Positions 1-50,151 are shown, numbered from the stretch's first letter. The stretch: DNA of 64,000 nucleotides from Holophagales bacterium (GCA_009837085.1 VXUF01000048.1:14111-78110), one strand, 5' to 3'. Program-made: numbers and translations. Notes: generated by a model from the sequence alone, not told the origin.

Positions 1-30
1 GTCGCCTTGAGCGGTCGCGCTTCGCGGCAC
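1..30 (-). repeat. Distal-module fragment of the dispersed hairpin repeat family (R0), cut by the window edge
   Basis: gtcgccttgagcggtcgcgcttcgcggc at 1-28 matches gtcgccttgagcggtgccgcttcgcggc at 1618-1645 (26/28 by eye). Confidence 0.5.
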
Positions 31-82
31 TTCCACTCGGTACGATGAGCCGCCCTCGAACCGAAGCCCCCGGGAGGATCGA

Positions 83-445
83 TTGAACGAAATGAAGCCG
101 GCGGAGGTCAAGCCCGCGATCAGCATCGATGTCGTCAACCAGCTCGACGCTCGGGTCGGGACGATCGAGAGCGTCACGGATGTCGAGGGCTCCAGCAAGC
201 TCGTCAGACTCAGGGTCGATTCCGGCGACCACAAGCGGACGATCCTCGCGGGGATGAAACAGGAGCGCGAAGATCCGACCGAGATCGAAGGTCGTCAGGC
301 GTTGTTCATCGTCAACCTGGAGCCGAGGAAGATGATGGGGGAGACCTCGGAGGGCATGGTCTTCGACGTCGGTTACGAGGACGGGTTTCAGCCGGCGTTG
401 CTGCTCCCGGAGCGGCCGGTGCCGAACGGCGCTCGCGCCGGTTGA
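83..445 (+). CDS. tRNA-binding domain protein (CsaA/YgjH, EMAP-II-like OB fold)
   Basis: 120-aa ORF. LDARVGTI..KLVRLRVDSGD..RTILAGMK..ALFIVNLEPRKMMGETSEGMVF fits the tRNA-binding domain pattern. SD-like gggagga at 72-78 precedes TTG 83; ATG 92 is an alternative start. Confidence 0.85.
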   Translation: MNEMKPAEVKPAISIDVVNQLDARVGTIESVTDVEGSSKLVRLRVDSGDHKRTILAGMKQEREDPTEIEGRQALFIVNLEPRKMMGETSEGMVFDVGYEDGFQPALLLPERPVPNGARAG

Positions 446-457
446 GTCGCGGAGTGT

Positions 458-541
458 CGTCGCCGCTTCACGGCGCGAGTCGTTGGCCGTCTGCGGCGGC
501 AGCCGGCCAGAAGGCCGGCGCACCCAGTGTGGGGCGCTGCC
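458..541 (-). repeat. Hairpin repeat copy R1 (long-form variant) between convergent genes
   Basis: The reverse complement reads cacactgggtgcgccggccttctggccggctgccgccgcag...cgccgtgaagcggcg. It lies between the stop at 445 (+) and the stop at 552 (-). Confidence 0.8.
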
Positions 542-551
542 ATAGAAGGCC

Positions 552-1562
552 TTAGCCTTGCTGCCCTTCTGGAGGAGCTTCGTCTGGCTCCCGGACTTCA
601 TAGCCTCTCTGTCGGAGCCATGACAGGGGTCCGTCGGGCCGGAGCAGGCGCTCGAGCGGCAGGATGGCGAAGGTGGAGTCGTTGTCGGTCACGGCACGAT
701 CGACGTTCTCGAGCCAGAGCTTCCAAACGCGCGATTCGATCTGGCTCAGCACCTCCGGGTCGGCGAGCGTGAAGGAACCGCAGACCCCGGTGGCCGAGTC
801 GCCTGAATGGGCCCTGATCGAGGCCAGATCGCCTACGGCCCAGGCGGTCGCAAGACGTGCGTGCGCCTCGAGCTGGGCATCGAGCCCCTGCAGACCTGCC
901 TGAAGACAGGTCTGCTCCGCCTCGGGCGACATCTCCTGAGTCGAATCGAAGAGAGGCAAGTCCTTGTGGCGCTCGGACAGGCGCGTTGGCACCTTCTTGA
1001 CGTTGCGCTTCCTCGCTCGCTTCTCGATCGCCCGACCAATCGTTAGGCCCGACTCCAGGCCGGCGGATTGCGCCGCCGAGTCGAAGAGCTCCTCGGCCGC
1101 GACGATAGGCCGCAGTTCTTCGAGGCCGTCCCGCTTCGGTGCGTATCTGAGTCTGGTCTCCGAGAAGAGCCGGTACAGGTTCTCCGGCAGCACGTCCTCC
1201 AGGGTTCCGCGGTCCGGGATCCGTCGTATGAGCTTCCACAGCCGCCGTGCTCTCACCGGGTTTGTCACCCCGAAAACGCGCGTGGATGGAAGCGGTAGGT
1301 ACTCGCTGGAGTGGGCCAACGCGTGTTCGATGGAGTCCGGATGCCAGAGGAGATCGTTCGGCACGAGTCTGGGAATGCCGAGGATCCACAGGACGTGGTC
1401 GTCCTTCGTGACCTTCCAGAGGGGCGGCCCAGGGAGATCTCCCATGACCTGGATCTCTTCCTCGACGACGTCCACCGGGGCCGGCTGGGATGCGTCGTTC
1501 TCCTGGGCGATCGCTCCAGGTACTGCCACCGAGGTCGCGAGTAGCAAGGCTCTCCAGTTCAT
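552..1562 (-). CDS. TraB/GumN family protein, secreted
   Basis: ORF 552..1922 is trimmed to ATG 1562, which has an aaggag SD upstream. The rest of that ORF only translates repeat R2. Signal peptide MNWRALLLATSVAVPGAIAQ. GPPLWKVTKDDHVLWILG and the overall length fit the TraB/GumN family by recollection. Confidence 0.7.
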   Translation of the reverse strand: MNWRALLLATSVAVPGAIAQENDASQPAPVDVVEEEIQVMGDLPGPPLWKVTKDDHVLWILGIPRLVPNDLLWHPDSIEHALAHSSEYLPLPSTRVFGVTNPVRARRLWKLIRRIPDRGTLEDVLPENLYRLFSETRLRYAPKRDGLEELRPIVAAEELFDSAAQSAGLESGLTIGRAIEKRARKRNVKKVPTRLSERHKDLPLFDSTQEMSPEAEQTCLQAGLQGLDAQLEAHARLATAWAVGDLASIRAHSGDSATGVCGSFTLADPEVLSQIESRVWKLWLENVDRAVTDNDSTFAILPLERLLRPDGPLSWLRQRGYEVREPDEAPPEGQQG

Positions 1563-1617
1563 CGAGGGGCTCCTTTCGCCCCAAGAACGGTGGACCGCTG
1601 TCTTTTGTTCCACTGGT

Positions 1618-1729
1618 GTCGCCTTGAGCGGTGCCGCTTCGCGGCGCGTTCTTTCCGGAAAGCCGGCGGGGACGCCGGCGCACCCAGTGTGCGGCGCATC
1701 GGTGGGGACCCAGTGTGGGGCGCTGTACC
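1618..1729 (-). repeat. Hairpin repeat copy R2 (composite, with an extra partial core end) in a divergent intergenic region
   Basis: agccggcggggacgccggcgcacccagtgtg at 1661-1691 is the reverse-complement core. A second gacccagtgtggggcgctg lies at 1708-1726. The distal part at 1618-1645 matches window positions 1-28. Confidence 0.85.
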
Positions 1730-1737
1730 ATCCACTC

Positions 1738-2465: not shown

Positions 2466-3367
2466 TGCCCACCTTTGCGCGGCGCGTCGGCCGCTACATG
2501 GACCTCCAAGTCCAAGGCGTTTCCTACGAGGTCTACTTCGAGTCGGCCGGGAACCCGGACGGCATTCCGCTCGTGCTGCAGCACACCGCCGGCTCCGACG
2601 GCCGCCAGTGGCGCCACCAGTTGGAGGACGAACGGATCGGCCGGCACTTCCACCTGCTGGCCTACGACCTGCCCTACCACGCCAAGTCCGTGCCGCCGGC
2701 GGGAGTCGAGTGGTGGAAGCAGGAGTACAGGCTGACGAAGAGCTTTCTGCTCGACTTCGTCGCCGCCTTTGTGGGCGAGCTCCAGCTCGAAGACCCGGTC
2801 TACATGGGTAGTTCGATCGGCGGTCACCTGGCCCTCGACCTCGCCCTGCACCGGCCGGGCCTGTTCCAGGCCGTCATCGGGCTGGAGGCGGCGATCAAGT
2901 CGGACCCCGGCAACATCGACCTGCTCGACCACCCCGAGATCAACAACGGTTACAAGGGCGAGCTGATGATCGGCATCACGTCGCCCGAGGCGCCGGAGGC
3001 GTTCCGGCGCGAGGTCGGCTGGTGCTACAGCCAGAGCGCGCCGCGAGTGTTCCGGGGCGACCTCTTCTACTGGGGCACCGACCACGACCTGGGCGACCGC
3101 GCGTCGGAGATCGACACGTCGCAGACGCGGGTGTTCCTGCTGACCGGCGAGTACGACGCGGCCACGCCGCCCGCGGCGTCCAAGGAAGTTGCCGGGCAGA
3201 TCAAGGGAGCGACGTACCGGACGATGAAGGGCCTGGGCCACTTCCCGATGTCCGAGGACCCGGAGCGGTTCTACGGGTACATCGAGCCGGTCCTGGAGGA
3301 GATCGTCGGTGATCAGACGCGGCTGGGGTCGCCGGACTTTTCGCCGGCTGCGGCGGCTGGCCGCTAG
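2465..3367 (+). CDS. Alpha/beta-fold hydrolase
   Basis: 300 aa. GxSxG nucleophile elbow GSSIGG and C-terminal GLGHFPMSE His motif. ATG 2465 overlaps the preceding stop. Confidence 0.85.
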   Translation: MPTFARRVGRYMDLQVQGVSYEVYFESAGNPDGIPLVLQHTAGSDGRQWRHQLEDERIGRHFHLLAYDLPYHAKSVPPAGVEWWKQEYRLTKSFLLDFVAAFVGELQLEDPVYMGSSIGGHLALDLALHRPGLFQAVIGLEAAIKSDPGNIDLLDHPEINNGYKGELMIGITSPEAPEAFRREVGWCYSQSAPRVFRGDLFYWGTDHDLGDRASEIDTSQTRVFLLTGEYDAATPPAASKEVAGQIKGATYRTMKGLGHFPMSEDPERFYGYIEPVLEEIVGDQTRLGSPDFSPAAAAGR

Positions 3368-3377
3368 CGATGCGCTT

Positions 3378-3455
3378 CACACTGGGTGCGCCGGCGTCCC
3401 CGCCGGCTGCCGCCGAAGGCGGCCAGAGAGACGCGCCGGCCTAAGGGCCGGCGTC
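3378..3455 (+). repeat. Hairpin repeat copy R3 (full long form), intergenic
   Basis: cacactgggtgcgccggcgtccccgccggc / tgccgccgaaggcggc / cgccggcctaagggccggcg gives three consecutive hairpins (A, B, C). Confidence 0.9.
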
Positions 3456-3949: not shown

Positions 3950-4198
3950 TCAGTCGGTCCGGTGTCGCTTCCGGAGTCGCTGGAACACATCGGACGCCGG
4001 CTCAACCTGGCCGGCCTCGATCTGGCGGTCGCCTAGCTCAAGGATCTTGAGTAGAGCCATCCGGCTGTACTCCCGGTTCCATTCGGAGAGCGACTCGGGT
4101 ACCGGAAGCGGCTCGATCGCAGCGAGTCTGTCGATCGCGTCCAGTTGGCGCCGCCGCTTGTCGCGCTCTTCGTGGGACTGCTCGTCTGGGCCAGTCAC
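3950..4198 (-). CDS. Small hypothetical protein, possibly an addiction-module/antitoxin-like component
   Basis: 82-aa ORF. The C-terminal ..EWNREYSRMALLKILELGDRQIEAGQVEPASDVFQRLRKR loosely resembles putative addiction-module component or ParD-type C-termini. The start is uncertain. Confidence 0.35.
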   Translation of the reverse strand: MTGPDEQSHEERDKRRRQLDAIDRLAAIEPLPVPESLSEWNREYSRMALLKILELGDRQIEAGQVEPASDVFQRLRKRHRTD

Positions 4199-4300
4199 GA
4201 TCTTCCTCTCCGTATTCGGCCGACGTGAATCGATCGGGTCTTGACGACGCTAACAGGACTGCCGAAGTGCTGGCGGTCGAGCGACGTGGATCCACGCGAT

Positions 4301-4329
4301 AGCGCCTGGTTCGGTTGCCGCCAGGCGCT
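4301..4329. promoter_or_regulatory. Perfect 9-bp inverted repeat (agcgcctgg N11 ccaggcgct) in a divergent intergenic region
   Basis: Read directly from the sequence: 4301-4309 and 4321-4329 are reverse complements. Confidence 0.4.
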
Positions 4330-4333
4330 TACA

Positions 4334-4357
4334 CGTATACGATGCGTGGTATACGTA
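4334..4357. promoter_or_regulatory. Candidate VapB operator/promoter: two GTATACG motifs 14 nt apart, each within a palindrome
   Basis: cGTATACGatgcgtgGTATACGta. CGTATACG at 4334-4341 is palindromic, and GTATAC/TACGTA lie at 4349-4357. This is an AT-rich island about 25-45 nt upstream of vapB ATG 4381. Confidence 0.4.
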
Positions 4358-4380
4358 TTGCCGTGTCAGGAAGGCAGATC

Positions 4381-4602
4381 ATGAAGAGCAAGCTGACAAT
4401 CACCGTCGACAGTGAGTTGGTTCCCAGAGCCAAACAGTACGCAGAGGCTCGGGGAGTCTCGCTGTCGTCTCTGATCGAGGCATCGCTGAGAGAGATGGCG
4501 GGCGAGAAGACACCCTCGTTTGCATCGCGGTGGCGGGGTCGATTCAAGCCGGCACGGCGGGCGGACGGCCGCTACGCAGCGCTCGCCCGCAAGTACCTCT
4601 GA
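4381..4602 (+). CDS. Type II antitoxin (VapB-like) paired with a PIN toxin
   Basis: 73 aa from ATG 4381 (aggaagg SD). MKSKLTITVDSELVPRAKQYAEARGVSLSSLIEASLREM is a typical short antitoxin found upstream of PIN genes. Its stop overlaps the vapC start by 1 nt. Confidence 0.7.
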   Translation: MKSKLTITVDSELVPRAKQYAEARGVSLSSLIEASLREMAGEKTPSFASRWRGRFKPARRADGRYAALARKYL

Positions 4603-5006
4603 TGCTGCTGGACACGGACGTCCTGATCGACGTCGCCCTGGACCGGCGCCCTCACTCGGAAGCGTCCACCGAACTCCTCGAACGAATCGAGCGGTCGTCC
4701 CGTCGCGTGTTCGTGGCGTGGCACAGCCTGTCGAACTTCTACTACCTGGTGACTTCCGAACGTGGAGCCCGCGACGCCCGGGACTTCATCGCCGAGTTGA
4801 TCCGCTTTGTCGCCGTTGCGCCCGCTGATACGGCGACTCTCCGCTACGCGATCTCCCTCCCGATGACGGACTTTGAAGATGCGATGCAGGTTGCGGCTGC
4901 GCGGGCGTGCGGAGCGGAGCACATCGTTACGAGGAACGTCCGGGACTTCAGGCTGTCCCCGATCCCGGCCGTGACCCCGCGAGAGGCGCTAGCGCGCCTG
5001 TTCTAA
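4602..5006 (+). CDS. vapC: PIN-domain ribonuclease toxin VapC
   Basis: 134 aa. It opens MLLDTDVLID (first acidic PIN residue), with later ..MTDFEDAMQVAAA.. and ..IVTRNVRDF. It is coupled to the upstream antitoxin. Confidence 0.85.
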   Translation: MLLDTDVLIDVALDRRPHSEASTELLERIERSSRRVFVAWHSLSNFYYLVTSERGARDARDFIAELIRFVAVAPADTATLRYAISLPMTDFEDAMQVAAARACGAEHIVTRNVRDFRLSPIPAVTPREALARLF

Positions 5007-6288: not shown

Positions 6289-6290
6289 CG

Positions 6291-7649: not shown

Positions 7650-7663
7650 CGGGCGAGGTAGTC

Positions 7664-7693
7664 CACACTGGGGACGCCGGCGCACCCAGTGTG
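7664..7693. repeat. Minimal palindromic repeat copy R4 (9-bp stem), a terminator-like hairpin between convergent genes
   Basis: In cacactggg gacgccggcgca cccagtgtg the arms are exact reverse complements. It lies 15 nt after the stop at 7649 (+) and 27 nt after the stop at 7720 (-). There is no T-tract. Confidence 0.8.
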
Positions 7694-7719
7694 CGAGCGG
7701 ACCGGTTGCCGACCTTCTC

Positions 7720-9222
7720 CTACCCCTCGATCCCCCCGATGCACATGTACTTGATCTCGAGGTAGTCGTCCAACCCGTACTTCGACCCTTCGCGGCCGTG
7801 GCCGGACTCCTTCATGCCGCCGAAGGGGGCCATCTCGTTGGAGATGATGCCTTCGTTGATTCCGACGATGCCGTACTCCAGCGCTTCGCTGACGCGCCAG
7901 ATGCGGCCGACGTCGCGGGCGTAGAAGTAGCTGGCAAGGCCGAACTCGGTGTCGTTGGCCATGGCGATCGCTTCCTCTTCGGTGCTGAACTTCATCAGCG
8001 GCGCGATGGGGCCGAAGATCTCTTCGCGGAAGACGCGCATGTCGTCGGTCACGTTGGTGAGGATCGTGGGCTGGACGAAGCACTCGCCGAGGTCGGACTG
8101 ACCGCCGCCGATCTCGACTGTGGCGCCGCGGTCGACCGCGTCGGTGACGCGGCTGGTCACGTTCGCGACGGCCTCGGTGCTGATCAGCGGGCCCACGGTG
8201 ACGCCGTCCTCGGTGCCGTCGCCCATCTTGATCCCGGCCACCGCGGCGGCGAGTTTCTCGGCGAACTCGTCGTAGACGCCTTCCTGGACCAGGATGCGGT
8301 TGGCGCAGACGCAGGTCTGGCCGGCGTTGCGGAACTTGCAGATCATGGCGCCGGCCACCGCCGCGTCCAGGTCGGCGTCGTCGAACACGATGAAGGGCGC
8401 GTTGCCGCCGAGTTCCATCGACAGCCGCTTCATCGTGCCCGCGCACTGAGACATGAGCAGCTTGCCCACCGCGGTGGAGCCGGTGAAGGTGAGCTTGCGG
8501 ACGGTGGGGTTGGACGTCAGTTCCTTGCCGATCTCCTCGGTCTGGCCGCAGAGGATGTTGATCACTCCGGCCGGGATGCCCGCCCGCTCCGCCAGCTCGG
8601 CCAGTGCATTGGCTGACAGGGGCGTTTCGTTGGCCGGCTTGCAGACCACCGTGCAGCCGGCCGCGAGGGCCGGTGCGATCTTGCGCGCGAGCATGGCGTT
8701 GGGGAAGTTCCAGGGCGTGATGCAGGCCACCACGCCGACCGGCTGCTTGATGGTGACGACCCGCTTGTCGTTGGCAGGCTGGGGGATCGTGTCGCCGTAG
8801 ACCCGCTTGGCCTCTTCGGCGAACCACTCGACGTAGCTGGCGCCGTAGGCGATCTCCCCGCGGGCCTCGAACAGGGGCTTGCCCTGTTCCGCGGTCATCA
8901 TCCGGGCCAGGTCTTCCTGGCTCTCCATCATCAGGTCGAACCAGCGGCGCAGCAGCGCGGCGCGCTCCTTGGCGGTGGTCTGCCGCCACTGCTCGAAGGC
9001 CCTTCCGGCAGCCTCGATGGCTCGCCTCGTTTCGGCGCCGCCGCAGCAGGCGACTTCGGCCAGGACCTCGCCGGTGGCCGGGTTCTCGACGGCGAAGGTC
9101 TCGCCGGAGTCCGCGGCGACCCACTGGCCGTCGACGTAGGCCTGGTCACGGAGCAGACCGGGGTCGGCCAGCTCGATGCGGGTGGCCGGGACTCGGGTGG
9201 CTACGGAGGCGGCAATGCTCAT
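7720..9222 (-). CDS. gabD: NAD(P)+-dependent succinate-semialdehyde dehydrogenase
   Basis: 500 aa. ITPWNFP, FTGSTAVGK, ELGGNAP, catalytic Cys context NAGQTCVCANR, and C-terminal PFGGMKESGHGREG. Overall GabD-like. Confidence 0.9.
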   Translation of the reverse strand: MSIAASVATRVPATRIELADPGLLRDQAYVDGQWVAADSGETFAVENPATGEVLAEVACCGGAETRRAIEAAGRAFEQWRQTTAKERAALLRRWFDLMMESQEDLARMMTAEQGKPLFEARGEIAYGASYVEWFAEEAKRVYGDTIPQPANDKRVVTIKQPVGVVACITPWNFPNAMLARKIAPALAAGCTVVCKPANETPLSANALAELAERAGIPAGVINILCGQTEEIGKELTSNPTVRKLTFTGSTAVGKLLMSQCAGTMKRLSMELGGNAPFIVFDDADLDAAVAGAMICKFRNAGQTCVCANRILVQEGVYDEFAEKLAAAVAGIKMGDGTEDGVTVGPLISTEAVANVTSRVTDAVDRGATVEIGGGQSDLGECFVQPTILTNVTDDMRVFREEIFGPIAPLMKFSTEEEAIAMANDTEFGLASYFYARDVGRIWRVSEALEYGIVGINEGIISNEMAPFGGMKESGHGREGSKYGLDDYLEIKYMCIGGIEG

Positions 9223-11444: not shown

Positions 11445-12953
11445 GTGATGATGGCACTCCGATTCCGAAACTGTGTGCTCACCGTGGGACTGATCGCCGC
11501 GTTCGCTTGTCAATCTTCCGAGCCGGCTCCGGAGGCCTCGACTGCCTCACCGGCGCCACCACCGCCGAACATCGTCGTCATCGTCGGTGACGACCTGGGC
11601 TACGGAGATGTCGGCGTGTACGGCTCGCAGATCCCCACGCCTCACATCGACCAGTTGGCACGCGACGGCGTGCGCCTGACCGACGGTCATGTGTCCGCAG
11701 CCGTCTGCAGTCCGATGCGTGCGGGTTTCCACACCGGGCAGTATCAGAATCGTTTCGGCTGGGAGTACAACCCGACCGACCACGACCTCGGACTTCCGTT
11801 GGATCAGAAAACGGTCGCCAACCACTTTCAGGACGCCGGCTACGTCACCGGCCTGATCGGCAAGTGGCACCTAGGGGTGCCCGAGCCCTATCATCCACTC
11901 CACCGCGGTTTCGACGAGTTCTACGGCATCCTGGGAGGCGTCACCAGCTATATCGACTCCCGACTTCCAGGCACCCACGAGTGGCCCGCCGAGAGAGCCC
12001 CCACCACCCGCACCCGCGAGTCGCAGGTCATCCGCGACGGCTTCGAGGTGGTCGAGGTCGAGGAGTATCTGACGGACGTCTTTGCCGAGAGGGCGGTCGA
12101 CTTCATCGATCGCCACGCCGACGAGCGCTTCCTCCTGATGCTGACACCCAACACTCCGCACACCCCGCTGCAGGCGATCGACGAGTACATGGAGCGGGTG
12201 CAGCACATCGAAGGCGATGGAGCGCGCGTCTACGCCGCGATGGTCGTCTCGCTCGACGACTACGTCGGCGACGTCGTCGCGGCACTACGCAAGCACGATC
12301 TGGAGCGCGACACGCTGGTCGTCTTTCTCTCCGACAATGGGTGCATCAACTACATGCCCGAGCCGATCTGCACCAACGCGCCGCTGGCGGGGCATAAGCG
12401 CTACCACCTGGAAGGCGGTCATCGCGTCCCCTTCATCCTCAAGTGGCCGGCGGGCCTTCCTCAGGGCGAGGTCTACCACGGGCTTGCCAGCGCTCTCGAC
12501 CTCTATGCCACGTTCACTGCCGCGAGCGGTTTCGAAGCGGATAGCCCGGACAGCGTCAATCTGCTTCCGCATCTGCGCGGCGAGACCAGCGAACCGCCGC
12601 ACGAGTTCCTCTACTGGCGGGCGGCACCGAACATCGCCATCCGCTGGGGCAAGTGGAAGATGTGGAAAGTGAACAACACCGATATCGAGATCCCCGCCGG
12701 GCCACCGGGCCAGGTCCTGCCGTCGATGGAGTACCCACCCGACCACTCACCTATGGGCCAGACCACCGTTCTGTACGACCTGGAGGCCGATCTCGGGGAA
12801 GCCAGCAACATCGCGGATCAGCACCCGGAGATCGTCGAGCGCCTGGAGAGGGAACTCGAAGCCTGGGAGGCCGAGCTCGCCGAACCACTCTGGGTCAACC
12901 ATCGCGGGACTCTTCACTCGCTTCACGGTCAGACGGTTCAGCTCTTCTTCTGA
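11445..12953 (+). CDS. Sulfatase (formylglycine-dependent arylsulfatase family), exported
   Basis: 502 aa. NIVVIVGDDLGYGDVG and the CSPMR formylglycine motif. Cys-containing signal peptide LIAAFAC. Confidence 0.9.
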   Translation: MMMALRFRNCVLTVGLIAAFACQSSEPAPEASTASPAPPPPNIVVIVGDDLGYGDVGVYGSQIPTPHIDQLARDGVRLTDGHVSAAVCSPMRAGFHTGQYQNRFGWEYNPTDHDLGLPLDQKTVANHFQDAGYVTGLIGKWHLGVPEPYHPLHRGFDEFYGILGGVTSYIDSRLPGTHEWPAERAPTTRTRESQVIRDGFEVVEVEEYLTDVFAERAVDFIDRHADERFLLMLTPNTPHTPLQAIDEYMERVQHIEGDGARVYAAMVVSLDDYVGDVVAALRKHDLERDTLVVFLSDNGCINYMPEPICTNAPLAGHKRYHLEGGHRVPFILKWPAGLPQGEVYHGLASALDLYATFTAASGFEADSPDSVNLLPHLRGETSEPPHEFLYWRAAPNIAIRWGKWKMWKVNNTDIEIPAGPPGQVLPSMEYPPDHSPMGQTTVLYDLEADLGEASNIADQHPEIVERLERELEAWEAELAEPLWVNHRGTLHSLHGQTVQLFF

Positions 12954-12964
12954 GGCTCCGTGGC

Positions 12965-14041: not shown

Positions 14042-14109
14042 ACGTCCTTACCTCTCCAGGACTCTCGAGTATAGTCGTATAACGCCTAGCTCCGTACAGG
14101 AGAATCGTC

Positions 14110-16115: not shown

Positions 16116-16127
16116 GCCCACAGTCGC

Positions 16128-17111: not shown

Positions 17112-17193
17112 GGGTCCTCCCTTCGCCGCTGCGGCGGAGGTTCTCGATCGTGCTCTCTACGAGAATGTGTAGCCTACACCGCTCGGGGTCAGC

Positions 17194-23753: not shown

Positions 23754-23820
23754 GGTCTTCTCGTTTCTCTTCGGTTCGATGACCGGAGTGGATGCGATCT
23801 GTTCCCGGAGCCCTCATCCT

Positions 23821-23865
23821 AGCGCCGGAGTGGGTGCGCCTGCGTCCCCGCCGGCATCCGGCGCT
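23821..23865 (+). repeat. Hairpin repeat copy R5 (short form), divergent intergenic region
   Basis: agtgggtgcgcctgcgtccccgccggcatccggcgc, flanked by agcgccgg / ccggcgct arms. Confidence 0.8.
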
Positions 23866-36350: not shown

Positions 36351-38130
36351 AAGCGGCCGCCGCCGTCTGCGGCTGCCACACACTGGGTGCGCCGGCGTCC
36401 CCGCCGGCATCCGCTTTGCCCTCCTCGCGCTGACCATCGCCGCCCAACCCGCCGTCGCCCAGTTCCAGGACGGCGAGCCGGCGCCGTCGCGCAACGACCC
36501 GGCCGACACCATCCTCGACGGCGGCAACGTCTACACGCCCGACGGCTGGGCAGAGTCCATCGCGATCCGCGACGGCGTCATCGTCGCGGTCGGCAACAGC
36601 GCTTCCGTCGCCGCGTTCCGCGCCGACGCCACCGAGTTCGTCGACCTGGCGGGCCGGACCGTCTTCCCCGGCTTCCACGACGTCCACGTGCATCCGTTGA
36701 TCGCGGGCATGCAGGAGTTCTCGTGCCGGCTGCCTCCGGGCGCGACACCGGACATCATCAGCGAGTCGGTCGGCGAGTGCGCTTCAAAGGCCGAGCCGGG
36801 GGAGTGGATCAACGGCGGCAACTGGGTGGCGGCGGTGTTCGAGCCCGGCCAGCAGACCAGGCAGTTCCTCGACGCCGTGTCGCCGGACAACCCGGTCTTC
36901 CTCTACGACGAGTCCCACCACAGCGTCTGGGTCAACACGATGGCGCTGGAAGTGGCCGGCATCGACCGCGACACGCCGGACCCGGAGGGCGGGATCATCG
37001 AGCGCGACCAGGACGGCAACCCGACCGGCCTGCTGCGCGAGACGGCCAACGCGATGGTGGCTTCGGTGATTCCTCCGGCCTCGGACGCGCGGAAGATGCA
37101 GGGCATGAAGATCGCCACCGACGAGATGCTGGCCCACGGCATCACCTCGTTCACCGTCGCCTACGCGAACTCGTGGCAGCTCGGCGCGCTGGCGCAACTG
37201 GCGCGTGAGGGAACGTTGAAGCAGCGGGTGCGGGCCTGCGTCGCCTGGGCGCACAATCCGGCGCTCGCCGATGCAGCCGAGTCCCAACTCGCGATCCGGG
37301 CGACCTACGCGAGCGAGCGACTGAAGGTCGACTGCGTGAAGATCATGCTCGACGGCGTACCGACGGAGAGCCACACCGCGGCGATGCTCGCGCCCTACGA
37401 GGACTCGACCGGCGAGGACGATCCGCGGCCCAAGCTCGGGCTGCTCCTGGTGCCGCAGGAGGCGCTGAACGACGCGGTCACGGCGTTCGACCGCCAGGGG
37501 CTGCACGTCAAGATGCACGCCGCCGGCGACGGCGCGGTGCGGGCCGCGATCGACGCCGTCGCGGCGGCCCGGGAACGGAACGGCTTCGGCGGCCCGATGC
37601 ACGACGTCGGCCACAGCACCTTCGTTGACCCGGCCGACATTCCCCGGCCGCGCGAACTGGGGATGGCCTGGGAGTTCTCGCCCTACATCTGGTTCCCCAC
37701 GCCGATGGCGGCGATCGACATCCGCAAGGCGGTCGGCGACGAGCGGATGAAGCGATGGGTGCCGATCAGGGACGCCCTCGAGACGGGCGCCCTCGTGGCG
37801 GCCGGCTCGGACTGGCCGGTGGTGCCTCTGGTCGACCCGTGGCTCGCGGTCGAGACGATGGTGACCCGGCAGGTTCCCGGCGGCAGCGAGGAGACGCTCG
37901 GCCTCCAGGGACAGGTGAGGCTCGAGGACGCTCTTCGCATCATGACCTGGAACGGCGCGCGCCTGATGGGCCAGGACGACAAGGTCGGCACGATCGAGGT
38001 TGGGAAGGAGGCCGACCTCGTCGTGACCTCGCAGAACCCGTTCGACGTCGAGCCGACCCAGGTCCACCGGACGAAGGTGGAGATGACGTTCATCGCCGGC
38101 GAGAGGGTGTACACCGCCGGTGCGAACTAG
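36340..38130 (+). CDS. Amidohydrolase family protein (Amidohydro_3), exported; paralog of the preceding gene
   Basis: 596 aa. Strong aggagga SD 7 nt before ATG 36340, overlapping the upstream gene by 11 nt. PGFHDVHVHP, MLDGV, KMHAAGD, HSTF and GSDWP. Signal region RRRLRLPHTGCAGVPAGIRFALLALTIAAQPAVAQ. Confidence 0.9.
   Translation: MRSRSGRRRLRLPHTGCAGVPAGIRFALLALTIAAQPAVAQFQDGEPAPSRNDPADTILDGGNVYTPDGWAESIAIRDGVIVAVGNSASVAAFRADATEFVDLAGRTVFPGFHDVHVHPLIAGMQEFSCRLPPGATPDIISESVGECASKAEPGEWINGGNWVAAVFEPGQQTRQFLDAVSPDNPVFLYDESHHSVWVNTMALEVAGIDRDTPDPEGGIIERDQDGNPTGLLRETANAMVASVIPPASDARKMQGMKIATDEMLAHGITSFTVAYANSWQLGALAQLAREGTLKQRVRACVAWAHNPALADAAESQLAIRATYASERLKVDCVKIMLDGVPTESHTAAMLAPYEDSTGEDDPRPKLGLLLVPQEALNDAVTAFDRQGLHVKMHAAGDGAVRAAIDAVAAARERNGFGGPMHDVGHSTFVDPADIPRPRELGMAWEFSPYIWFPTPMAAIDIRKAVGDERMKRWVPIRDALETGALVAAGSDWPVVPLVDPWLAVETMVTRQVPGGSEETLGLQGQVRLEDALRIMTWNGARLMGQDDKVGTIEVGKEADLVVTSQNPFDVEPTQVHRTKVEMTFIAGERVYTAGAN
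36379..36413 (+). repeat. Hairpin repeat copy R9 (short/truncated) inside the signal-peptide coding region
   Basis: cacactgggtgcgccggcgtccccgccggcatccgc. Confidence 0.85.
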
Positions 38131-40993
38131 GGCGGAGCCGGCCTTTCGGCCGGCGCGTGCTTCTGGCCGCCTTCGGCGGCAGCCGGCGGGGACGCCGGCG
38201 CACCCAGTCTGTGCGGCGCGAGGTGCTGGCTGGCTCGTCCTTGGGATCGTGCTTCGGTTGCTCGCGGCCGCGCCCGTCGCGGCCGCCGAGCCGGACGCGC
38301 GCGCCCTCTACCGCCTCCATTGCGGCGGCTGTCACGGGCAGGCGCTCGAAGGCGGGCTCGCGGAGCCGCTGATCAAGTCGGACTGGCGGTTCGGCCGGGA
38401 CGGCTTCTCGGTGGAGAGCAACATCCGGCACGGCATCCCGGGCACCGACATGCCGGGCTACCTCGGCGAACTCTCGAACGAGGAGATGGCGGCGCTCGTC
38501 GAGCTGATCTACAGCCTGCAGACGGAGGAGGTCTGGATCGCGAAGCCGCTGCCGCCGGCGGTCGAGACGGAGCACTACACGCTCCGGGTCGAGTACCTGG
38601 CCACCGACGAACTGGAGAACCCCTGGGGCATCGAGTTCACGGGTCCGTCGGAAGCGCTGATCTCCGAGGACGCGGGGTACCTGATCCGGTACCGGGACGG
38701 CAGGGTGGATCCGGAGCGGATTACGGGGCTGCCGCCGGTTGACCTCGCGACCTCGACCGGCGGGCTGATGGACATCGCGCTCGATCCGGACTATGCGGAG
38801 AACGGATGGGTCTACGCGGCGATCAGCCACTCGGAAGATCCGAACGACCGCTACGCCCGCGGGCTGACCCGGATCATCCGCGGCCGGGTCGACGGCAACC
38901 GCTGGCGGGACACGGAGTACCTCTTCCGGCTCGATCCCGGGTACCACCTGCCCGACAGCAAGCACTGGGGCGGCCGCCTGCTGTTCGACCGCGACGGCTT
39001 CCTCTACTTCTCGATCGGCGACATGAGCGCGGCGATGAACTCGCAGGATCCGGCCATGCCGTCGGGCAAGGTGTTCCGCATCCGGCCCGACGGCGGCATC
39101 CCGGACGACAACCCCTTCGCCGGCCAGGACGGAGCGCTCGGCGCGGTGTTCACTCTCGGCAACCGGAACGTCCAGGGCATGGCGCAGCATCCGGAGACCG
39201 GCGGGATCTGGGCCGCCGAGCACGGTCCGCGCGGCGGCGACGAACTGAATCTCCTCGTCAAGGGCCGGAACTACGGCTGGCCGGTCGTGACGTTCGGCGT
39301 CAACTACGACGGCTCGGTGATCAGCGACCGGACCCGCGCCGACGGCATCGAGCCCCCGGTCGTCGAGTGGACGCCGGCGCTCGCCGTCGGCCCGATCGAG
39401 TTCGTGGCGAGCCCGGCTTTCGAGCAGTGGCGAGGCAACCTGCTGGTCGGTTCGCTCTCCTTCGAGGAACTCCGGCGCCTGGAGCTCGACGGCGGCCGGG
39501 TCACTCGCCAGGAACTCCTGTTCAAGGGCCATGGCCGCATCCGCGACATCAAGACCGGCCCCGACGGCGCGATCTACCTGCTCCTCAACAACCCCGGCGC
39601 CCTGGTCCGCCTGACGGCCGCCGAGACGACCAACGTCACCGCGATCGAACACGCGGCCCTCATCCCGATGACTTCGCGCACGCCGCTCGTGCTGGAGGAT
39701 CACACCCTGGTCGTCCGCGACGAACGGATCGCCGACATCTGCCCCAGCAGCCCAGGCTGCACGCCGGCGGATGCCCGCGTCGTCGACGGCGCCGGCAAGT
39801 TCGTCATCCCGGCGCTCGCCGACATGCACAACCACTTCGATGGCTTCGCCTGGGACGGCACGGACGCCTCACGCATCCGGATGCGCGACCAGAACCTGAG
39901 GCAGTACGTCATGTTCGGGGTCGCCACGGCGAGGGACCCCTCCGGCGGCCCCCTGGTCCTGGAGGCGCGCGACGCGATCGAGCGCGGCGAGCTGTTCGGG
40001 CCGCGGATCTTCGTTTCGTCGCCGCTGATGGACGGCGACCCGCCGCTCTTCCCGATTCCGCGGACGTTCACGGAGCCCGGGGAGGCGGCTGACTTCGTCC
40101 GCCGGAGCGCGGCGGAAGGGTACGACCTGGCCAAGGTCTACACCACGCTCAGCCTCAAGGTGTTCGACGCGGTGATGGCGGCCGCCGCGGAGGTGGGCCT
40201 TACGGTCGCGGCCCACGTGCCGATCCGCGTGCCCCTGGAGCACGCCCTGGAGCGCGGGCTGCGCTCGATCGAGCACCTGACCGGCTACGACGTCGCCTGC
40301 GCGGCCCCGCACGTGAAGATGGAGCCGGTCCGGCAGGACATCTACCAGGGCTGGGCGTGGTGCTCGCCGGAGAAGGTGGCCGAGCTGGCGGCGCTGACCG
40401 CGAAGTACGAGGTCTGGAACGTGCCGACCCTCGCCCTGTGGGACAGCACGGTGACCGAGTTCGACCGGCCGCAGCGCGACGCGGGCGAGATCGGCAAGTA
40501 CGAGCACCCGACGACGCCCGGCGGCATCGAGTGGCTCTACACCCTGTACGGACCGCGCGAGCGGGCGGGGATCACCGGGACGCGCTCGGTGCGGCTCGGC
40601 CTGGTCAAGGCGCTCCACGACGCGGGCGCGCCGCTCCTCGTCGGCACCGACATCTCGGCCACCGGCTATACCGTCCACCGGGAGATGGGCCTCTTCGTCG
40701 AGGCCGGCCTGACGCCGTACCAGACGCTGGAAGCCGCGACCTCGGAGGCGGCCCGCTACATGGACCGGGAAGGCGAGTTCGGGGTGCTCGCCACGGGCGC
40801 GCGGGGCGACGTTCTGCTCCTGGACGCGAACCCGCTCGACGACATCGGCAACGCACGTAGGATCCGCGGCCTGATGTTCCGCGACAGGTGGTGGTCGAAG
40901 CAGGCGATCGACGCCGAGCTGGAAGCGATCCAGCGCGAGTACGCGGAAGACGAGGCGCGTCTGCGGGAACTGGGGATCGGACCGCGGCCGTGA
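38120..40993 (+). CDS. Three-domain fusion: cytochrome c + PQQ-dependent sugar (glucose/sorbosone) dehydrogenase + amidohydrolase, exported
   Basis: 957 aa. CGGCH at about aa 68-72. The sGDH-like six-blade region runs about aa 150-500 (ENPWGIEF, GGLMDIALDP, HWGGRLLFDRDGFLYFSIGD, GKVFRIRPDG, GNRNVQGMA, EHGPRGGDELN, GRNYGWP). The amidohydrolase runs from about aa 505 (ADMHNHF, AAHV, IEHL, VGTD). GTG 38120 overlaps the upstream gene. Confidence 0.85.
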   Translation: MRTRAEPAFRPARASGRLRRQPAGTPAHPVCAARGAGWLVLGIVLRLLAAAPVAAAEPDARALYRLHCGGCHGQALEGGLAEPLIKSDWRFGRDGFSVESNIRHGIPGTDMPGYLGELSNEEMAALVELIYSLQTEEVWIAKPLPPAVETEHYTLRVEYLATDELENPWGIEFTGPSEALISEDAGYLIRYRDGRVDPERITGLPPVDLATSTGGLMDIALDPDYAENGWVYAAISHSEDPNDRYARGLTRIIRGRVDGNRWRDTEYLFRLDPGYHLPDSKHWGGRLLFDRDGFLYFSIGDMSAAMNSQDPAMPSGKVFRIRPDGGIPDDNPFAGQDGALGAVFTLGNRNVQGMAQHPETGGIWAAEHGPRGGDELNLLVKGRNYGWPVVTFGVNYDGSVISDRTRADGIEPPVVEWTPALAVGPIEFVASPAFEQWRGNLLVGSLSFEELRRLELDGGRVTRQELLFKGHGRIRDIKTGPDGAIYLLLNNPGALVRLTAAETTNVTAIEHAALIPMTSRTPLVLEDHTLVVRDERIADICPSSPGCTPADARVVDGAGKFVIPALADMHNHFDGFAWDGTDASRIRMRDQNLRQYVMFGVATARDPSGGPLVLEARDAIERGELFGPRIFVSSPLMDGDPPLFPIPRTFTEPGEAADFVRRSAAEGYDLAKVYTTLSLKVFDAVMAAAAEVGLTVAAHVPIRVPLEHALERGLRSIEHLTGYDVACAAPHVKMEPVRQDIYQGWAWCSPEKVAELAALTAKYEVWNVPTLALWDSTVTEFDRPQRDAGEIGKYEHPTTPGGIEWLYTLYGPRERAGITGTRSVRLGLVKALHDAGAPLLVGTDISATGYTVHREMGLFVEAGLTPYQTLEAATSEAARYMDREGEFGVLATGARGDVLLLDANPLDDIGNARRIRGLMFRDRWWSKQAIDAELEAIQREYAEDEARLRELGIGPRP
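38131..38213 (-). repeat. Hairpin repeat copy R10 (long form, inverted) inside the 5' coding region of the fusion gene
   Basis: The reverse complement reads cacagactgggtgcgccggcgtccccgccggc tgccgccgaaggcggc ... gccggccgaaaggccggc. In the gene frame it is translated as AFRPARASGRLRRQPAGTPAHPV. Confidence 0.9.
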
Positions 40994-47442: not shown

Positions 47443-48974
47443 CGGCCGACGCGACACTGGGTGCGCCTGCGTCCTCGCCGGCATCTGGCGCTGGTGAGGA
47501 GCGAACCGACGTTGAGGGCGTCGCCGTTCCGACCGGCCATCTGATCGGCGGCCGGCGGGTCGGCGCCGGCGCCGGCTTCGAGGTGCGCTCGCCGATCGAC
47601 TGGGAATGGAAGCTGGCCGAGTTTCCCGAAGCGGGGGCGGTGGAGGTCGACGCCGCCGTCGACGCCGCGCGGGGGGCGTTCCCGGACTGGGCGGCGCTGG
47701 GACCGGAGGGACGCGCGCCGTACCTGCTGCGCCTGGCTGCCGGGGTCGAACGGCGGGCCGCCGAGATCGCCCAGGTCGAGACGGTCGACAACGGTTCGCT
47801 GCTGGAAGCGATGCGCGAGCGGGTGATTCCGCGCGGCGGGATGAACTTCCGCTTCTTCGCCGAGTACGCGGTGTCGCGTCTGGCCGAGCCGTCGCGGATC
47901 CTGCATGGCGGCGAGCGGAACACGGTCCGCCACGATCCGGCCGGCGTCGTCGCGGTGTCGACGCCGTGGAACGCGCCCTTCATGCTGGCGACCTGGCGGG
48001 TCGGCCCGGCCCTCGCCGCGGGCAACACCGTGGTCCTCAAGCCGCCGGAGTGGGCGCCGCTGACGTGCTCACTGCTAGGCGATCTGGCGGAGGAGGCGGG
48101 GCTGCCGCCGGGCGTGCTCAACATCGTCCACGGCGGGCCGGAGACCGGCGCGATGCTGACCGGCCACGCCGGCGTCGACCGGATCGCCTTCACCGGATCG
48201 CCGGCCACTGCCCGCACGGTCGGCGCCGCGGCCGCGGCGGAGTTGACGCCCGTCTCCTTCGAACTCGGCGGCAAGTCGCCGTTCCTCGTCTTCGCCGACG
48301 CCGACCTGGAGGCCGCTGCCCGCACCGCGGCGTACCAGTACGACAACTCAGGCCAGGTCTGCCTGGCCGGCACCCGGTTGCTAGTGGAGCGGAGCTGCCT
48401 CGACGCCTTCATGGAGCGGTTCCTGGCGGAAGTCGAGGCGATCCGGGTCGGCGATCCGCGGGAGGCCGCGACGACCTACGGTCCGCTGATCCACCCGCGG
48501 GCGCTTTCGCGGGTCGAGGCACACGTCGAGAAGGCGCTGGCCCAGGGCGCGGCGCTCCGCTTCGGCGGCAAGAGCAGCGGCGGGCTCTACTTCCCGCCGA
48601 CGCTGTTCACCGACGTGCCGTCCGGCGCCGACATCCTGCGCGAGGAGGTGTTCGGGCCGGTGCTGACCCTGCAGGCGTTCGAGGACGACGACGAGGCGAT
48701 CGCGTTGGCCGAGTCGACGGACTACGGGCTCGCCACGATGATCTTCACCGGCGACGAGTCCCGCGCGGGCCGGCTCTCGCGCCGGATCAGCGCCGGCACG
48801 ATCTGGGTGAACTGCTTCTACGTCCGCGACCTCGAGACGCCCTTCGGCGGGACGAAGCACTCCGGCATCGGCCGCGAGGGCGGGCGGCATTCGTTCGACT
48901 TCTACTGCGACGTGAAGACGGTCTGCGAGCGCACTGCCGCGTTCGCGGCCGCCGGGACAGGAGGTGGCTCGTGA
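47439..48974 (+). CDS. NAD+-dependent hydroxymuconic-semialdehyde-type aldehyde dehydrogenase (HpaE/XylG-like)
   Basis: 511 aa from GTG 47439 (GTGA overlap). NFRFFAEY, STPWNAPF, FTGSPATAR, ELGGKSP, catalytic Cys SGQVCLAG, and C-terminal VRDLETPFGGTKHSGIGREGGRHSFDFY, which closely resembles HpaE-type enzymes. Repeat R11 is translated near the N-terminus. Confidence 0.9.
   Translation: MTADATLGAPASSPASGAGEERTDVEGVAVPTGHLIGGRRVGAGAGFEVRSPIDWEWKLAEFPEAGAVEVDAAVDAARGAFPDWAALGPEGRAPYLLRLAAGVERRAAEIAQVETVDNGSLLEAMRERVIPRGGMNFRFFAEYAVSRLAEPSRILHGGERNTVRHDPAGVVAVSTPWNAPFMLATWRVGPALAAGNTVVLKPPEWAPLTCSLLGDLAEEAGLPPGVLNIVHGGPETGAMLTGHAGVDRIAFTGSPATARTVGAAAAAELTPVSFELGGKSPFLVFADADLEAAARTAAYQYDNSGQVCLAGTRLLVERSCLDAFMERFLAEVEAIRVGDPREAATTYGPLIHPRALSRVEAHVEKALAQGAALRFGGKSSGGLYFPPTLFTDVPSGADILREEVFGPVLTLQAFEDDDEAIALAESTDYGLATMIFTGDESRAGRLSRRISAGTIWVNCFYVRDLETPFGGTKHSGIGREGGRHSFDFYCDVKTVCERTAAFAAAGTGGGS
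47453..47491 (+). repeat. Hairpin repeat copy R11 (short form) inside the aldehyde dehydrogenase 5' coding region
   Basis: gacactgggtgcgcctgcgtcctcgccggcatctggcgc. It shares the cctgc arm variant with R5. Confidence 0.85.
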
Positions 48975-49969
48975 TCCGCGGCATCCACCACGTCGGGCTT
49001 GCCGTCACCGACCTCGCCGAGGCCTCGGCGCGCTGGCGGCGGCTGCTCGGCCTGACCCTGGCCGGAGACGACGGTGCCTCACCACTGGGTGCGCCGGCGT
49101 CCCCGCCGGCTGCCGCCGCAGGCGGCCGGGAGACGCGCGAGGCGCAAGCCTCGCTCCCTTCCGCCCTGCTCCGCTGCGCCTATGAAGACTTCTGCGTCCG
49201 CCTGACCGCCGGCGACCGAGGCTGCGTCGACTACATCGCCTACGAACTCGAAGCCGGCGTGACGCTGGCCGAGGCCGGCGGCCGGCTGTCCGACGCCGGA
49301 ACGCTCGCCGTGCCCTTCGAGCTGCCGGCCGGCCGGTTCGGGTTGCGCACCGCCGACCCGGACGGCAACGGCGTGGCCGTCGTCGAGCACGTTGCGCCGA
49401 ACGACCCGCGTCCCGACGTCTGCAAGCACTCGGACACCCTGCCCGGCTTCCATCCGCGCCGGCTCCAGCATGTGAACTACCTCACTGCCGACACCCCGCG
49501 CGCCGTCGACTGGTACGTCGAGGCTCTCGGCCTCAAGATCACCGACTGGATCGGCGACGACGCCTGCTGGCTCCACGCCGACCGCGACCATCACGTGCTC
49601 GCCTTCCTCGACAAGGGCTATGCCCACATCCACCACGTCGCCTTCGAACTGACCGACTGGGGCGAGATGCGGGTCGGCCTTGATCACCTGGCGGCCCACC
49701 GGCGACCGATCGTCTGGGGGCCCGGCCGCCACGGCATGGCCCGGAACCTGTTCGCCTACTGGCGGATGCCCGAGGAGGACACGTTCATCGAGTTCTTCGC
49801 CGACATGGAAGTGCTCGGCCCGAACCACCAGGTCCGCCACTTCCCGGACGATGCCTTCGCCTCGAACACCTGGGGTCAGCTCCCCCCGCGGTCCTACTTC
49901 CGGTTCGACGAAGAAGCGATCCGCGCCGAGTGGGAGCAGTCGCAGCAACTGGGCGATCCGCTCTCGTAG
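48971..49969 (+). CDS. Type I extradiol ring-cleavage dioxygenase (two-module VOC fold) carrying an in-frame repeat insertion
   Basis: 332 aa from GTG 48971 (GTGA overlap). N-terminus IRGIHHVGLAVTDLAEASARWRRLLGL. Putative 2-His-1-carboxylate ligands lie in LQHVNY, HIHHVAFEL and FIEFFAD. Residues about 37-65 are encoded by repeat R12. Confidence 0.85.
   Translation: MIRGIHHVGLAVTDLAEASARWRRLLGLTLAGDDGASPLGAPASPPAAAAGGRETREAQASLPSALLRCAYEDFCVRLTAGDRGCVDYIAYELEAGVTLAEAGGRLSDAGTLAVPFELPAGRFGLRTADPDGNGVAVVEHVAPNDPRPDVCKHSDTLPGFHPRRLQHVNYLTADTPRAVDWYVEALGLKITDWIGDDACWLHADRDHHVLAFLDKGYAHIHHVAFELTDWGEMRVGLDHLAAHRRPIVWGPGRHGMARNLFAYWRMPEEDTFIEFFADMEVLGPNHQVRHFPDDAFASNTWGQLPPRSYFRFDEEAIRAEWEQSQQLGDPLS
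49080..49156 (+). repeat. Hairpin repeat copy R12 (long form) inserted in-frame within the dioxygenase gene
   Basis: caccactgggtgcgccggcgtccccgccggc tgccgccgcaggcggc ... gcgaggcgcaagcctcgc, translated as SPLGAPASPPAAAAGGRETREAQASLPSA. Confidence 0.9.
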
Positions 49970-50004
49970 ACCGCTTCCCGCCGCAGGCGTTGGGGTAGTC
50001 GTCA

Positions 50005-50068
50005 CCGGCCTTCGGCCGGCGGCTGTGTTGGTTCGGAAGGCCGACGAGGACGTCGGCGCACCCAGTAG
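50005..50068 (-). repeat. Hairpin repeat copy R13 (divergent long form), head-to-head with R14
   Basis: The reverse complement reads ctactgggtgcgccgacgtcctcgtcggc...ccggccgaaggccgg. Hairpin A arms have changed to gccgac/gtcggc. Confidence 0.8.
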
Positions 50069-50077
50069 CACCGCCAG

Positions 50078-50151
50078 CACCCACTGGGTGCGCCGGCGTC
50101 CTCGCCGGCTGCCGCCGAACGCGGCTGGAGAACGCCGCCGCGAAGCGGCGA
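50078..50151 (+). repeat. Hairpin repeat copy R14 (long form)
   Basis: cacccactgggtgcgccggcgtcctcgccggc tgccgccgaacgcggc ... cgccgcgaagcggcg. Confidence 0.85.

Follow-up and report, generated by a model that had tools for sequence, protein, structure and literature searches.

A dispersed family of GC-rich hairpin repeats in Acidobacteriota that resembles REPs and RPEs

Introduction

The repetitive extragenic palindromes (REPs) of prokaryotes have been sorted into two superfamilies, tagged GTAG and CGTC (Di Nocera et al. 2013, PMC3733652). Rickettsia palindromic elements (RPEs) were placed in the CGTC class, for whose repeats no transposase was found, and for the Acidobacteria the same survey lists only genes resembling those of REP-associated tyrosine transposases (RAYTs), with long terminal inverted repeats, and no GTAG or CGTC repeats (PMC3733652). 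Here we analyse 64 kb of DNA (64,000 nucleotides; hereafter the window) from a Holophagales bacterium (GCA_009837085.1, VXUF01000048.1:14111-78110), in which a GC-rich hairpin repeat with its own tag, (A)CTGGGTGC, is scattered in 14 copies. Its bias in location, its dimers and its intragenic copies are those of published REP families (PMC3733652).

The element is mobile, and it probably represents a family of mobile, non-autonomous repeats of the REP/RPE kind. The basis for this is the joint gain or loss of its conserved head and its tails, a compensated stem, and placement just past stop codons, with a preference for the strand of the upstream gene. The first-pass annotation of the window had noticed the dispersed copies; beyond it, we find that coding sequence harbours about 40% of the window copies, and that copies sit shortly after stop codons. 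Judged against Rfam, a plasmid collection and the searched literature, the family looks undescribed. The tag and the host clade are new; the kind of element is already known.

Results

A conserved head with modular tails

We built a covariance model of the head on a diverse set of 55 copies and ran it with filters off. It found 13 full copies in the window, each at E<1e-6, and a fourteenth, truncated and palindromic, at E 0.002 (Table 1). It recovers the copies of the first-pass annotation at the coordinates given there, again in both orientations and at irregular spacing, and the two intervals described there as free of copies hold up as well, with no credible match to the head model in 7.7-23.8 kb or beyond 50.2 kb of the window. 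Pattern counts in the window are far above expectation for the 30-mer core at up to three mismatches (11 matches against 0 expected), the 12-mer ACTGGGTGCGCC at up to one mismatch (14 against 0.59) and GCCGGC-N6-GCCGGC (15 against 0.08). A headless distal fragment proposed at 1-30 is also real, about 27 of its 30 bases aligning with the distal tail of the copy at 1618-1660.

The whole element measures about 35-110 nt at about 80% G+C, but only the head is truly conserved. It is about 26 nt long and consists of the tag, a 7-bp stem GCCGGCG, a 4-nt pyrimidine loop (TCCC, TCCT, TTCT, CCCC and others) and CGCCGGC. Across 174 unique copies the information content is restricted to the head, with a sharp 5' edge. 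The tag forms a conserved unpaired flank, opposite (T/A)(G/T)CCG on the other side, and a weakly conserved CAC before hairpin A, that of the head, can pair with GTG to give a weak fourth mini-hairpin, (G)CAC-ACTGG-GTG(C). Folding reproduces the three hairpins in series (A, B and C) that had been proposed, with z-scores of -2 to -4, although hairpin A is better described as the 7-bp stem with its 4-nt loop than as GCCGGC-N6-GCCGGC. The folding energies of the copies discriminate neither between DNA and RNA nor between the strands.

In the sampled DNA, 191 of 249 CTGGGT(G/A)C sites have a perfect stem of at least 4 bp within 3 nt, and the stems that follow are nearly all 7-bp stems of the family. 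Alternative stems (GCCGGCC, GCGGGTC, GCGGACC, GCCGACG and GCTGGCG) each retain full complementarity. Both sides have changed in four of the seven stem pairs (49 cells), and 99% of cells pair against 21-56% in slid controls, a figure that is inflated because the alignment was chosen for at most one stem mismatch. Whatever that selection, several compensated stem types exist. A sister subfamily keeps CTGGGT(G/A)C with the stem GCGGGTC and a TTCT or CTCT loop (L070 7120-7270 and L050 5020-5055; L numbers denote stretches of relatives' DNA used for comparison).

One to three GC-rich tail hairpins of several types follow the head. Type 1 is TGCCGCC-GNA-GGCGGC with a third hairpin such as GCCGGCC-GCAA-GGCCGGC; type 2 is ATCCGGCGC-GAA-GCGCCGG-CTTCCGGA, sometimes closed by 11-nt inverted termini, GCGCGGCAGAA and TTCTGCCGCGC, that co-vary between loci; type 3 is TTCTGAGGAAAACGCGCCGC-GAA-GCGGCGAC(C/G)A(T/C)ACTG; and type 4 is a longer hairpin followed by GAGGCC-GAAG-GCCTC. 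On the head strand the tail loops read G-N-A or G-N-N-A (GAA 73, GCA 41, GGA 10 and GTA 8, against TTC 5). Loops of the form C-GNA-G are exceptionally stable in single-stranded DNA, as the literature on d(GCGAAGC) describes, which fits the handling of single-stranded DNA without proving it.

Among 189 heads there are 8 head-to-head and 10 tail-to-tail arrangements (18 inverted pairs, about 36 heads) and 12 tandem pairs. In L038 (3950-4125) five heads are arrayed in tandem at a period of 34 nt, each unit being ATCCGCC plus a head. Three loop and stem variants are mixed in this array, so heads can amplify locally besides dispersing.

A family shared by related genomes and metagenomes

An exact 27-mer occurs in more than 103 stretches from at least about 20 species-representative genome assemblies, and in more than 120 metagenome contigs. 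All carrier assemblies are metagenome-assembled genomes (MAGs) labelled Thermoanaerobaculia, Candidatus Multivorans (Ca. Multivoraceae), 'Holophagales' or Acidobacteria, and many are sponge-derived; one window protein is identical to a protein in the NCBI assembly GCA_009842005.1. Over 220 stretches outside the window, from other genomes or from metagenomes, carry the motif; the family is dispersed, as had been proposed, and is not a local duplication, for which absence of the motif elsewhere had been named beforehand as the sign. On complete chromosomes no replichore or strand pattern is visible, the points being too few.

The earlier suggestion that the sequence belongs to no named family also stands in the collections searched. 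A scan of the window against Rfam at gathering thresholds found nothing, nor did one of 29-39 kb at E<=1, a blastn search of PLSDB with a full copy returned a single partial match of 36 nt in an unannotated Streptomyces record, and the searched literature gave no paper on the core sequence or on Candidatus Multivorans.

Sites are filled and emptied as a unit

Evidence for mobility comes from 13 pairs of orthologous sites, with flanks 80-95% identical, at which one genome has a copy and its relative has none. Head and tail are absent together at the empty sites, so the tails are part of the mobile unit. We therefore rejected the idea that the head inserts beside pre-existing hairpins, as the empty sites lack the tails too.

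Occupied sites also change their occupants. Where the window has a head-to-head pair (49970-50270), L050 has one plus-strand copy with the stem GCGGGTC that overlaps a stop codon; because GCGGGTC heads occupy sites that hold standard heads in relatives, subfamilies evidently replace one another at the same spacer. The 30-nt remnant in the window at 7650-7720 faces a tail-to-tail dimer plus fragments in the orthologous spacer of L167, and these different occupants mark the site as a hot spot. Other copies are found in L068 and L070 in the spacer that holds the 1-30 fragment, and the copy at 3378-3455 has an orthologue in L070.

Two rearrangements were seen beside copies. A tRNA-binding-domain gene and a TraB/GumN gene have swapped order between the window (1-1730) and L070 (6600-8000; also L068). 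Copies or fragments lie at all three junctions of the swapped genes, which suggests repeat-mediated rearrangement. Additionally, a beta-lactamase-family gene is inverted in L050 (window 50275-55057, L050 5102-7386), and about 3.3 kb with a TetR gene and a sulfatase/DJ-1 fusion gene is replaced there by about 0.8 kb. The left breakpoint coincides with the head-to-head pair at 50005-50151.

Placement after stop codons

Placement was counted with a simple gene caller based on GC3 over 1.71 Mb containing 340 unique heads. Convergent spacers hold 86 heads and divergent spacers 33, although the two kinds of gene pair are about equally common (192 and 187). In spacers between codirectional genes 92 heads are sense and 47 antisense (p = 2e-4), and 40 heads lie inside called open reading frames (ORFs). 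The head usually starts 5-50 nt past a same-strand stop codon (median about 25 nt), and position relative to the upstream stop codon is the common denominator of placement. In overlapping gene pairs (ATGA, GTGA), a position shortly past the stop falls within the next gene.

The stop codons before heads are also enriched in TAG. Of genes with a same-strand head within the next 400 nt, 67 of 114 end in TAG, against 165 of 494 other genes (odds ratio 2.8, p = 1e-6); examples in the window are the TAG codons at 3365-3367, 23819-23821 and 29339-29341. At several empty sites the insertion point lies at or beside CTAG or TTAG. The spacing from TAG to the head varies, and the enrichment may or may not reflect a target preference. 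No T-tracts were found at the copies, and intrinsic terminators were rejected on that ground.

Copies carried inside coding sequence

Of the 14 copies in the window, six are within coding sequence, one of them (32015-32090) only probably so. Hardly any stop codons occur in any of the element's six frames, which makes in-frame residence possible. Two of the insertions, of 28 codons in a dioxygenase-like gene and 17 codons in an aldehyde dehydrogenase gene, are proven by relatives that lack them.

In the dioxygenase-like protein the Pfam match to the N-terminal domain is broken at residue 33, the offset against 3b59 is about 21 residues, and eight of nine aligned homologues, including one that is 73% identical, lack exactly these 28 residues. 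L050 carries an identical copy of the insert, and the predicted peptide across the junction reads ...DDGASPLGAPASPP.... The public annotation of the identical NCBI contig (L104 529-1695) gives this gene 388 aa and a start inside the upstream aldehyde dehydrogenase gene, as against the expected 332 aa from a start at the GTGA overlap (window 48971-49969), an example of gene callers being misled by the translated repeat and by open GC-rich frames. In the aldehyde dehydrogenase, whose GTG start at 47439 overlaps the upstream stop, 51 nt are missing from the 94%-identical L050 orthologue as a gap of 51 columns.

Three further copies (29345-29402, 34582-34657 and 36379-36413) are preceded by a start codon that lies at the upstream stop or overlaps it, and are followed by a signal peptide's hydrophobic core, where a clear coding signature begins. 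The first has ATG 29312 upstream; the remaining in-frame starts ahead of the mature protein are just TTG 29429 and 29432, within the h-region of the signal peptide. The second has in-frame starts only at GTG 34569 and GTG 34590, the latter inside the head, and the third has a sole in-frame start, ATG 36340; with no other usable start, these two copies belong to coding sequence. At 32015-32090 the copy is followed by 79 clearly coding codons with no canonical in-frame start in between, and from start codons and coding signature this copy is probably inside the coding sequence of an S9 peptidase.

Similar insertions occur in other genomes, where 29 codons are inserted in a lipoprotein signal peptide (L095 compared with L056) and about 35 residues are added to the linker of an ABC exporter (L032). 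Translated examples include TGCAGVPAGIR and HWVRRRPRRLPP. As all three frames and both strands of the repeat are used and stops are almost absent, the insertions are tolerated and do not supply a coding module.

Searches for a mobilizing enzyme

We searched the 1.71 Mb in several ways. Queries with E. coli TnpArep (identical to PDB 4ER8) and IS608 TnpA gave no tblastn match there, and a profile of 120 RAYTs, taken from a RayT-seeded protein search that returned Enterobacteriaceae only, had no match in its six-frame ORFs. Regular-expression searches for RAYT and IS200 proteins found nothing either, the first set being one that would have missed E. coli RayT itself. These RAYT searches are weak, as only about 1-2% of the genomes were sampled and the profile is narrow. 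The 674 predicted proteins near copies clustered into sulfatases, ABC transporters and similar proteins, with no transposase among them; near-identical dispersed segments near copies were syntenic blocks only, with no segment resembling an insertion sequence (IS); and the genes bracketed by inverted heads are ordinary.

Copies in the window and their surroundings

Table 1. Repeat copies and fragments in the window, with the head as located by the covariance model.
Position	Strand	Head	Form	Setting and predicted translation	Basis
1-30	-		tail-only fragment, no head		1-33 aligned locally with 1618-1651, about 27/30 bases
458-541	-	497-532	full long copy, variant head (stem GCCGGCC, loop TTCT), hairpins B and C	convergent spacer, tRNA-binding-domain gene (83-445) and TraB/GumN gene (552-~1570, minus)	57.7 bits; fold
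1618-1729	-	1657-1692	head 1662-1688, type-3 tail, hairpin GCCGC-GAA-GCGGC	divergent spacer, 5' of TraB/GumN gene	53 bits
1700-1718			second truncated head within the 1618-1729 copy		partial covariance-model match
3378-3455	+	3377-3412	long copy: head, B (loop GAA), C (loop TAAG)	between hydrolase gene stop (3367) and PNPOx-like gene start (3479)	core match, covariance model, fold
7664-7693	-	7671-7694	truncated palindromic remnant: first 21 nt of head joined to inverted CACACTGGG	convergent spacer, PrpD-like gene and aldehyde dehydrogenase gene	E 0.002
23826-23865	+	23825-23860	short degenerate copy, AGTGGGTGCGCCTGCGTCCCCGCCGGC then ATCCGGCGC	divergent spacer upstream of branched-chain permease operon	35.8 bits
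29345-29402	+	29344-29379	short type-2 copy, head + CCGGCGC-GAA-GCGCCGG	between ATG 29312 (ATGA overlap with upstream stop) and lipoprotein signal peptide of a periplasmic binding protein; ...TGCAGVPAGIRREAP...	covariance model
32015-32090	+	32014-32049	long copy	5' of S9 peptidase	covariance model, fold
34582-34657	+	34581-34616	long copy	N-terminal coding region of amidohydrolase 34569-36350; Arg-rich stretch (HWVRRRPRRLPPEAAERTCRPQGRR) before lipobox LVALALGC	Pfam, start codons
36379-36413	+	36378-36413	short copy, head + ATCCGC	N-terminal coding region of amidohydrolase 36340-38130; HTGCAGVPAGIR before signal peptide FALLALTIAAQPAVAQ	Pfam, start codons
38131-38213	-	38177-38212	long copy	antisense to both neighbours; between stop at 38130 and cytochrome-c/GSDH gene start (~38249)	core match, covariance model, fold
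47446-47505 (boundaries within ~5 nt)	+	47452-47487	short copy	in-frame after about codon 4 of aldehyde dehydrogenase	alignment with L050
49077-49160	+	49080-49115	long copy, 84 nt (28 codons)	in-frame, first VOC domain of extradiol-dioxygenase-like gene 48971-49969	
50005-50068	-	50035-50070	left half of head-to-head inverted pair, compensated stem GCCGACG/CGTCGGC		45.5 bits
50078-50151	+	50079-50114	right half of head-to-head pair, long copy, C = CGCCGC-GAA-GCGGCG then ACGACACTG	upstream of beta-lactamase-family gene (50275)	57.2 bits

Within the copy-free interval at 7.7-23.8 kb, G+C falls to its lowest value in the window at 12000-18000 (0.60-0.65, compared with 0.70 in 32-52 kb). This low-G+C stretch includes methylmalonyl-CoA mutase genes and three ORFs without a Pfam match, and may be a more recent acquisition or be under different constraints. 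We also note a PIN-domain (VapC-like) gene (4530-5006) and, within 3950-5006, a small ORF, upstream or opposite, without a Pfam match, which are likely to form a toxin-antitoxin pair that has no relation to the repeats.

Discussion

We consider it likely that these repeats are mobile, non-autonomous elements of the REP/RPE kind. The head would be the site that a trans-acting enzyme recognizes and cleaves while handling a folded single strand. This enzyme would most likely be an HUH tyrosine transposase of the RAYT/IS200 type, with its gene in another part of the genome, a type favoured by the single-stranded tag beside a hairpin, the strand asymmetry and the lack of a regular target duplication. 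That it is RAYT-like specifically is a possibility to which we would give somewhat less than even weight. The distribution may then reflect selection, with insertions surviving where hairpins do no harm or bring a slight benefit, for instance as hairpins at the 3' ends of mRNAs. Where genes abut or overlap, copies are carried in-frame in the first codons of the next gene, or else in permissive loops.

Several observations weigh against this reading. The DNA between insertion point and head varies from 2 to 22 nt, a poor fit to a fixed cleavage geometry, and a 15-bp direct duplication, by which two overlapping convergent gene ends stay intact, flanks one insertion, whereas the other pairs show none. 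About two thirds of the 189 heads are singletons rather than REPIN-like pairs. The GT(A/G)G tetranucleotide of REPs is absent from the end of the palindrome, where the conserved flank is (A)CTGGGTGC instead, and the features given for the other class (PMC3733652), namely a CGTC tag, A/T first stem pairs and a CCA tail, are missing too, as the stem starts G-C, C-G. Pfam annotation of the roughly 46 window genes shows no transposase or integrase, in agreement with the first-pass annotation for transposases, and no RAYT/IS200-like protein was found in the 1.71 Mb around the 340 heads, a search that covers about 1-2% of the genomes with an enterobacterial-only profile. Finally, some carrier genomes have genes only 65-70% identical in DNA to those of the window and yet an identical head, which could alternatively point to a host-level function.

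That last point belongs to a different view, in which the repeats are functional RNA elements of the host, either 3'-UTR hairpins that stabilize or punctuate operon transcripts or the site of a global RNA-binding protein, and mobility is secondary. We regard this as quite unlikely. The 92:47 sense bias, the enrichment at 3' ends and in convergent spacers and the tight placement after stop codons are what it would predict, but one third of the codirectional copies are antisense, and copies are found in divergent promoters and in coding sequences in all three frames. The same head occurs throughout a bacterial family, whereas individual sites are gained and lost quickly between genomes that are 90-95% identical, and differ in their occupants. 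The hairpins are stable and their tail loops are of the G-N-A or G-N-N-A form on the head strand (GAA 73 and GCA 41 against TTC 5); either strand, however, folds equally well as DNA or as RNA, and the tandem arrays with a 34-nt period, the lack of T-tracts and the lack of an Rfam match fit poorly with such a role.

We give still less credence to the possibility that the repeats are miniature derivatives of a conventional IS, akin to MITEs (miniature transposable elements with inverted repeats) or palindrome-associated transposable elements (PATEs), in which the head is one subterminal end and movement is by cut-and-paste with target duplication. Most copies have neither inverted termini nor a target duplication, although the co-varying type-2 termini (GCGCGGCAGAA...TTCTGCCGCGC) and the single 15-bp direct duplication are of the kind expected, and only one end is conserved, as at IS200/IS605-type ends. 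The 1.7 Mb contain no full-length IS with the head and no repeated transposase gene, and the plasmid collection gave only the partial Streptomyces match. A peptide repeat acting at the protein level, a local duplication or an assembly artefact has next to no chance of being correct. Several copies are translated, but three frames and both strands are used, most copies are intergenic, and many samples, assembled independently, contain the family; this reading is refuted by the use of frames and by the distribution. Integron attC sites and CRISPR arrays were likewise rejected, given the irregular spacing, both orientations, the copies in coding sequence and the lack of an integrase or, by Pfam annotation, of cas genes in the window.

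Taken as mobile REP/RPE-like repeats, the family extends selfish hairpin repeats of this type to uncultivated sponge-symbiont Acidobacteriota, and its tag gives a starting point in the search for the enzyme behind their movement. In these MAGs the repeats will also fragment short-read assemblies and confuse gene callers, and they mark rearrangement hot spots. Their translated share is unusually high, with many copies in the n-regions of signal peptides, which makes them a natural experiment on how exported proteins tolerate insertions. A bolder proposal, which we think unlikely, is that heads tagged CTGGGTGC make up a REP superfamily of their own, the third after GTAG and CGTC, moved by an enzyme other than a canonical RAYT that targets DNA or the transcription/translation boundary after stop codons. 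If so, in the tightly packed genomes of sponge symbionts the repeats would systematically supply proteins with new N-terminal peptide segments (Arg-rich signal-peptide n-regions, for example) and with linker inserts, and would remodel the host's secreted proteome and not just its spacers.

How, then, does the family compare with described systems? Of the analogies first drawn, those with REPs and RPEs fit best, and that with Correia elements fails. Correia elements of Neisseria and other bacterial MITEs are also small, non-autonomous and abundant, and can be co-transcribed and form RNA hairpins. However, Correia elements have 26-bp terminal inverted repeats and a TA target duplication, whereas here only type-2 copies have inverted ends, of 11 nt, and a duplication was seen at one of the 13 site pairs; without terminal inverted repeats on most copies, and without a TA duplication, this is not a Correia-type MITE. 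The ends of IS200/IS605 elements and PATEs share a subterminal hairpin with a short single-stranded motif, strand specificity and the lack of a target duplication, but differ from our repeats, in which the spacing from a target tetranucleotide to the hairpin is not fixed, a distinct second end is lacking and TnpA is not found nearby.

The REP, REPIN and bacterial interspersed mosaic element (BIME) repeats of Enterobacteriaceae and Pseudomonas, with the SMAG repeats of Stenotrophomonas, are closer. Like them, the family is a GC-rich palindrome with a one-sided unpaired tag and a high copy number (a 26-nt head, within the 20-40 nt of REPs, at 14 copies in 64 kb and 340 in 1.7 Mb). It too lies after genes, in convergent and unidirectional spacers, forms dimers, arrays and mosaics with other motifs, and has compensated stem variants and occasional intragenic copies. 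It departs from them in its 8-nt tag, CTGGGTGC rather than GTAG, in being mostly singletons with additional tail hairpins, in that no RAYT was found near the 340 copies, in its Acidobacteriota host, and in a much higher share in coding sequence (6 of 14 in the window), with many copies at the 5' ends of coding sequences.

It is this last property that brings in the RPEs, which, as Ogata et al. reportedly described in 2000, are inserted in-frame in protein-coding genes of Rickettsia. Our cases of 28, 17, about 35 and 29 aa are of the same kind, since RPEs and CGTC REPs also sit in-frame in protein genes, adding 17-35 residues in loops, linkers and N-termini; RPEs are, in addition, hairpin-forming, found in host-associated bacteria and associated with no transposase. 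The differences are that our repeats are about 80% GC and RPEs AT-rich, that ours are shorter and modular, and that ours strongly prefer the first tens of bases past a stop codon. CGTC is found at neither flank of the head, and its reverse strand shows only a loose CCCAG. The family behaves like REPs and RPEs but fails the tag definitions of both, and carries a conserved tag of its own.

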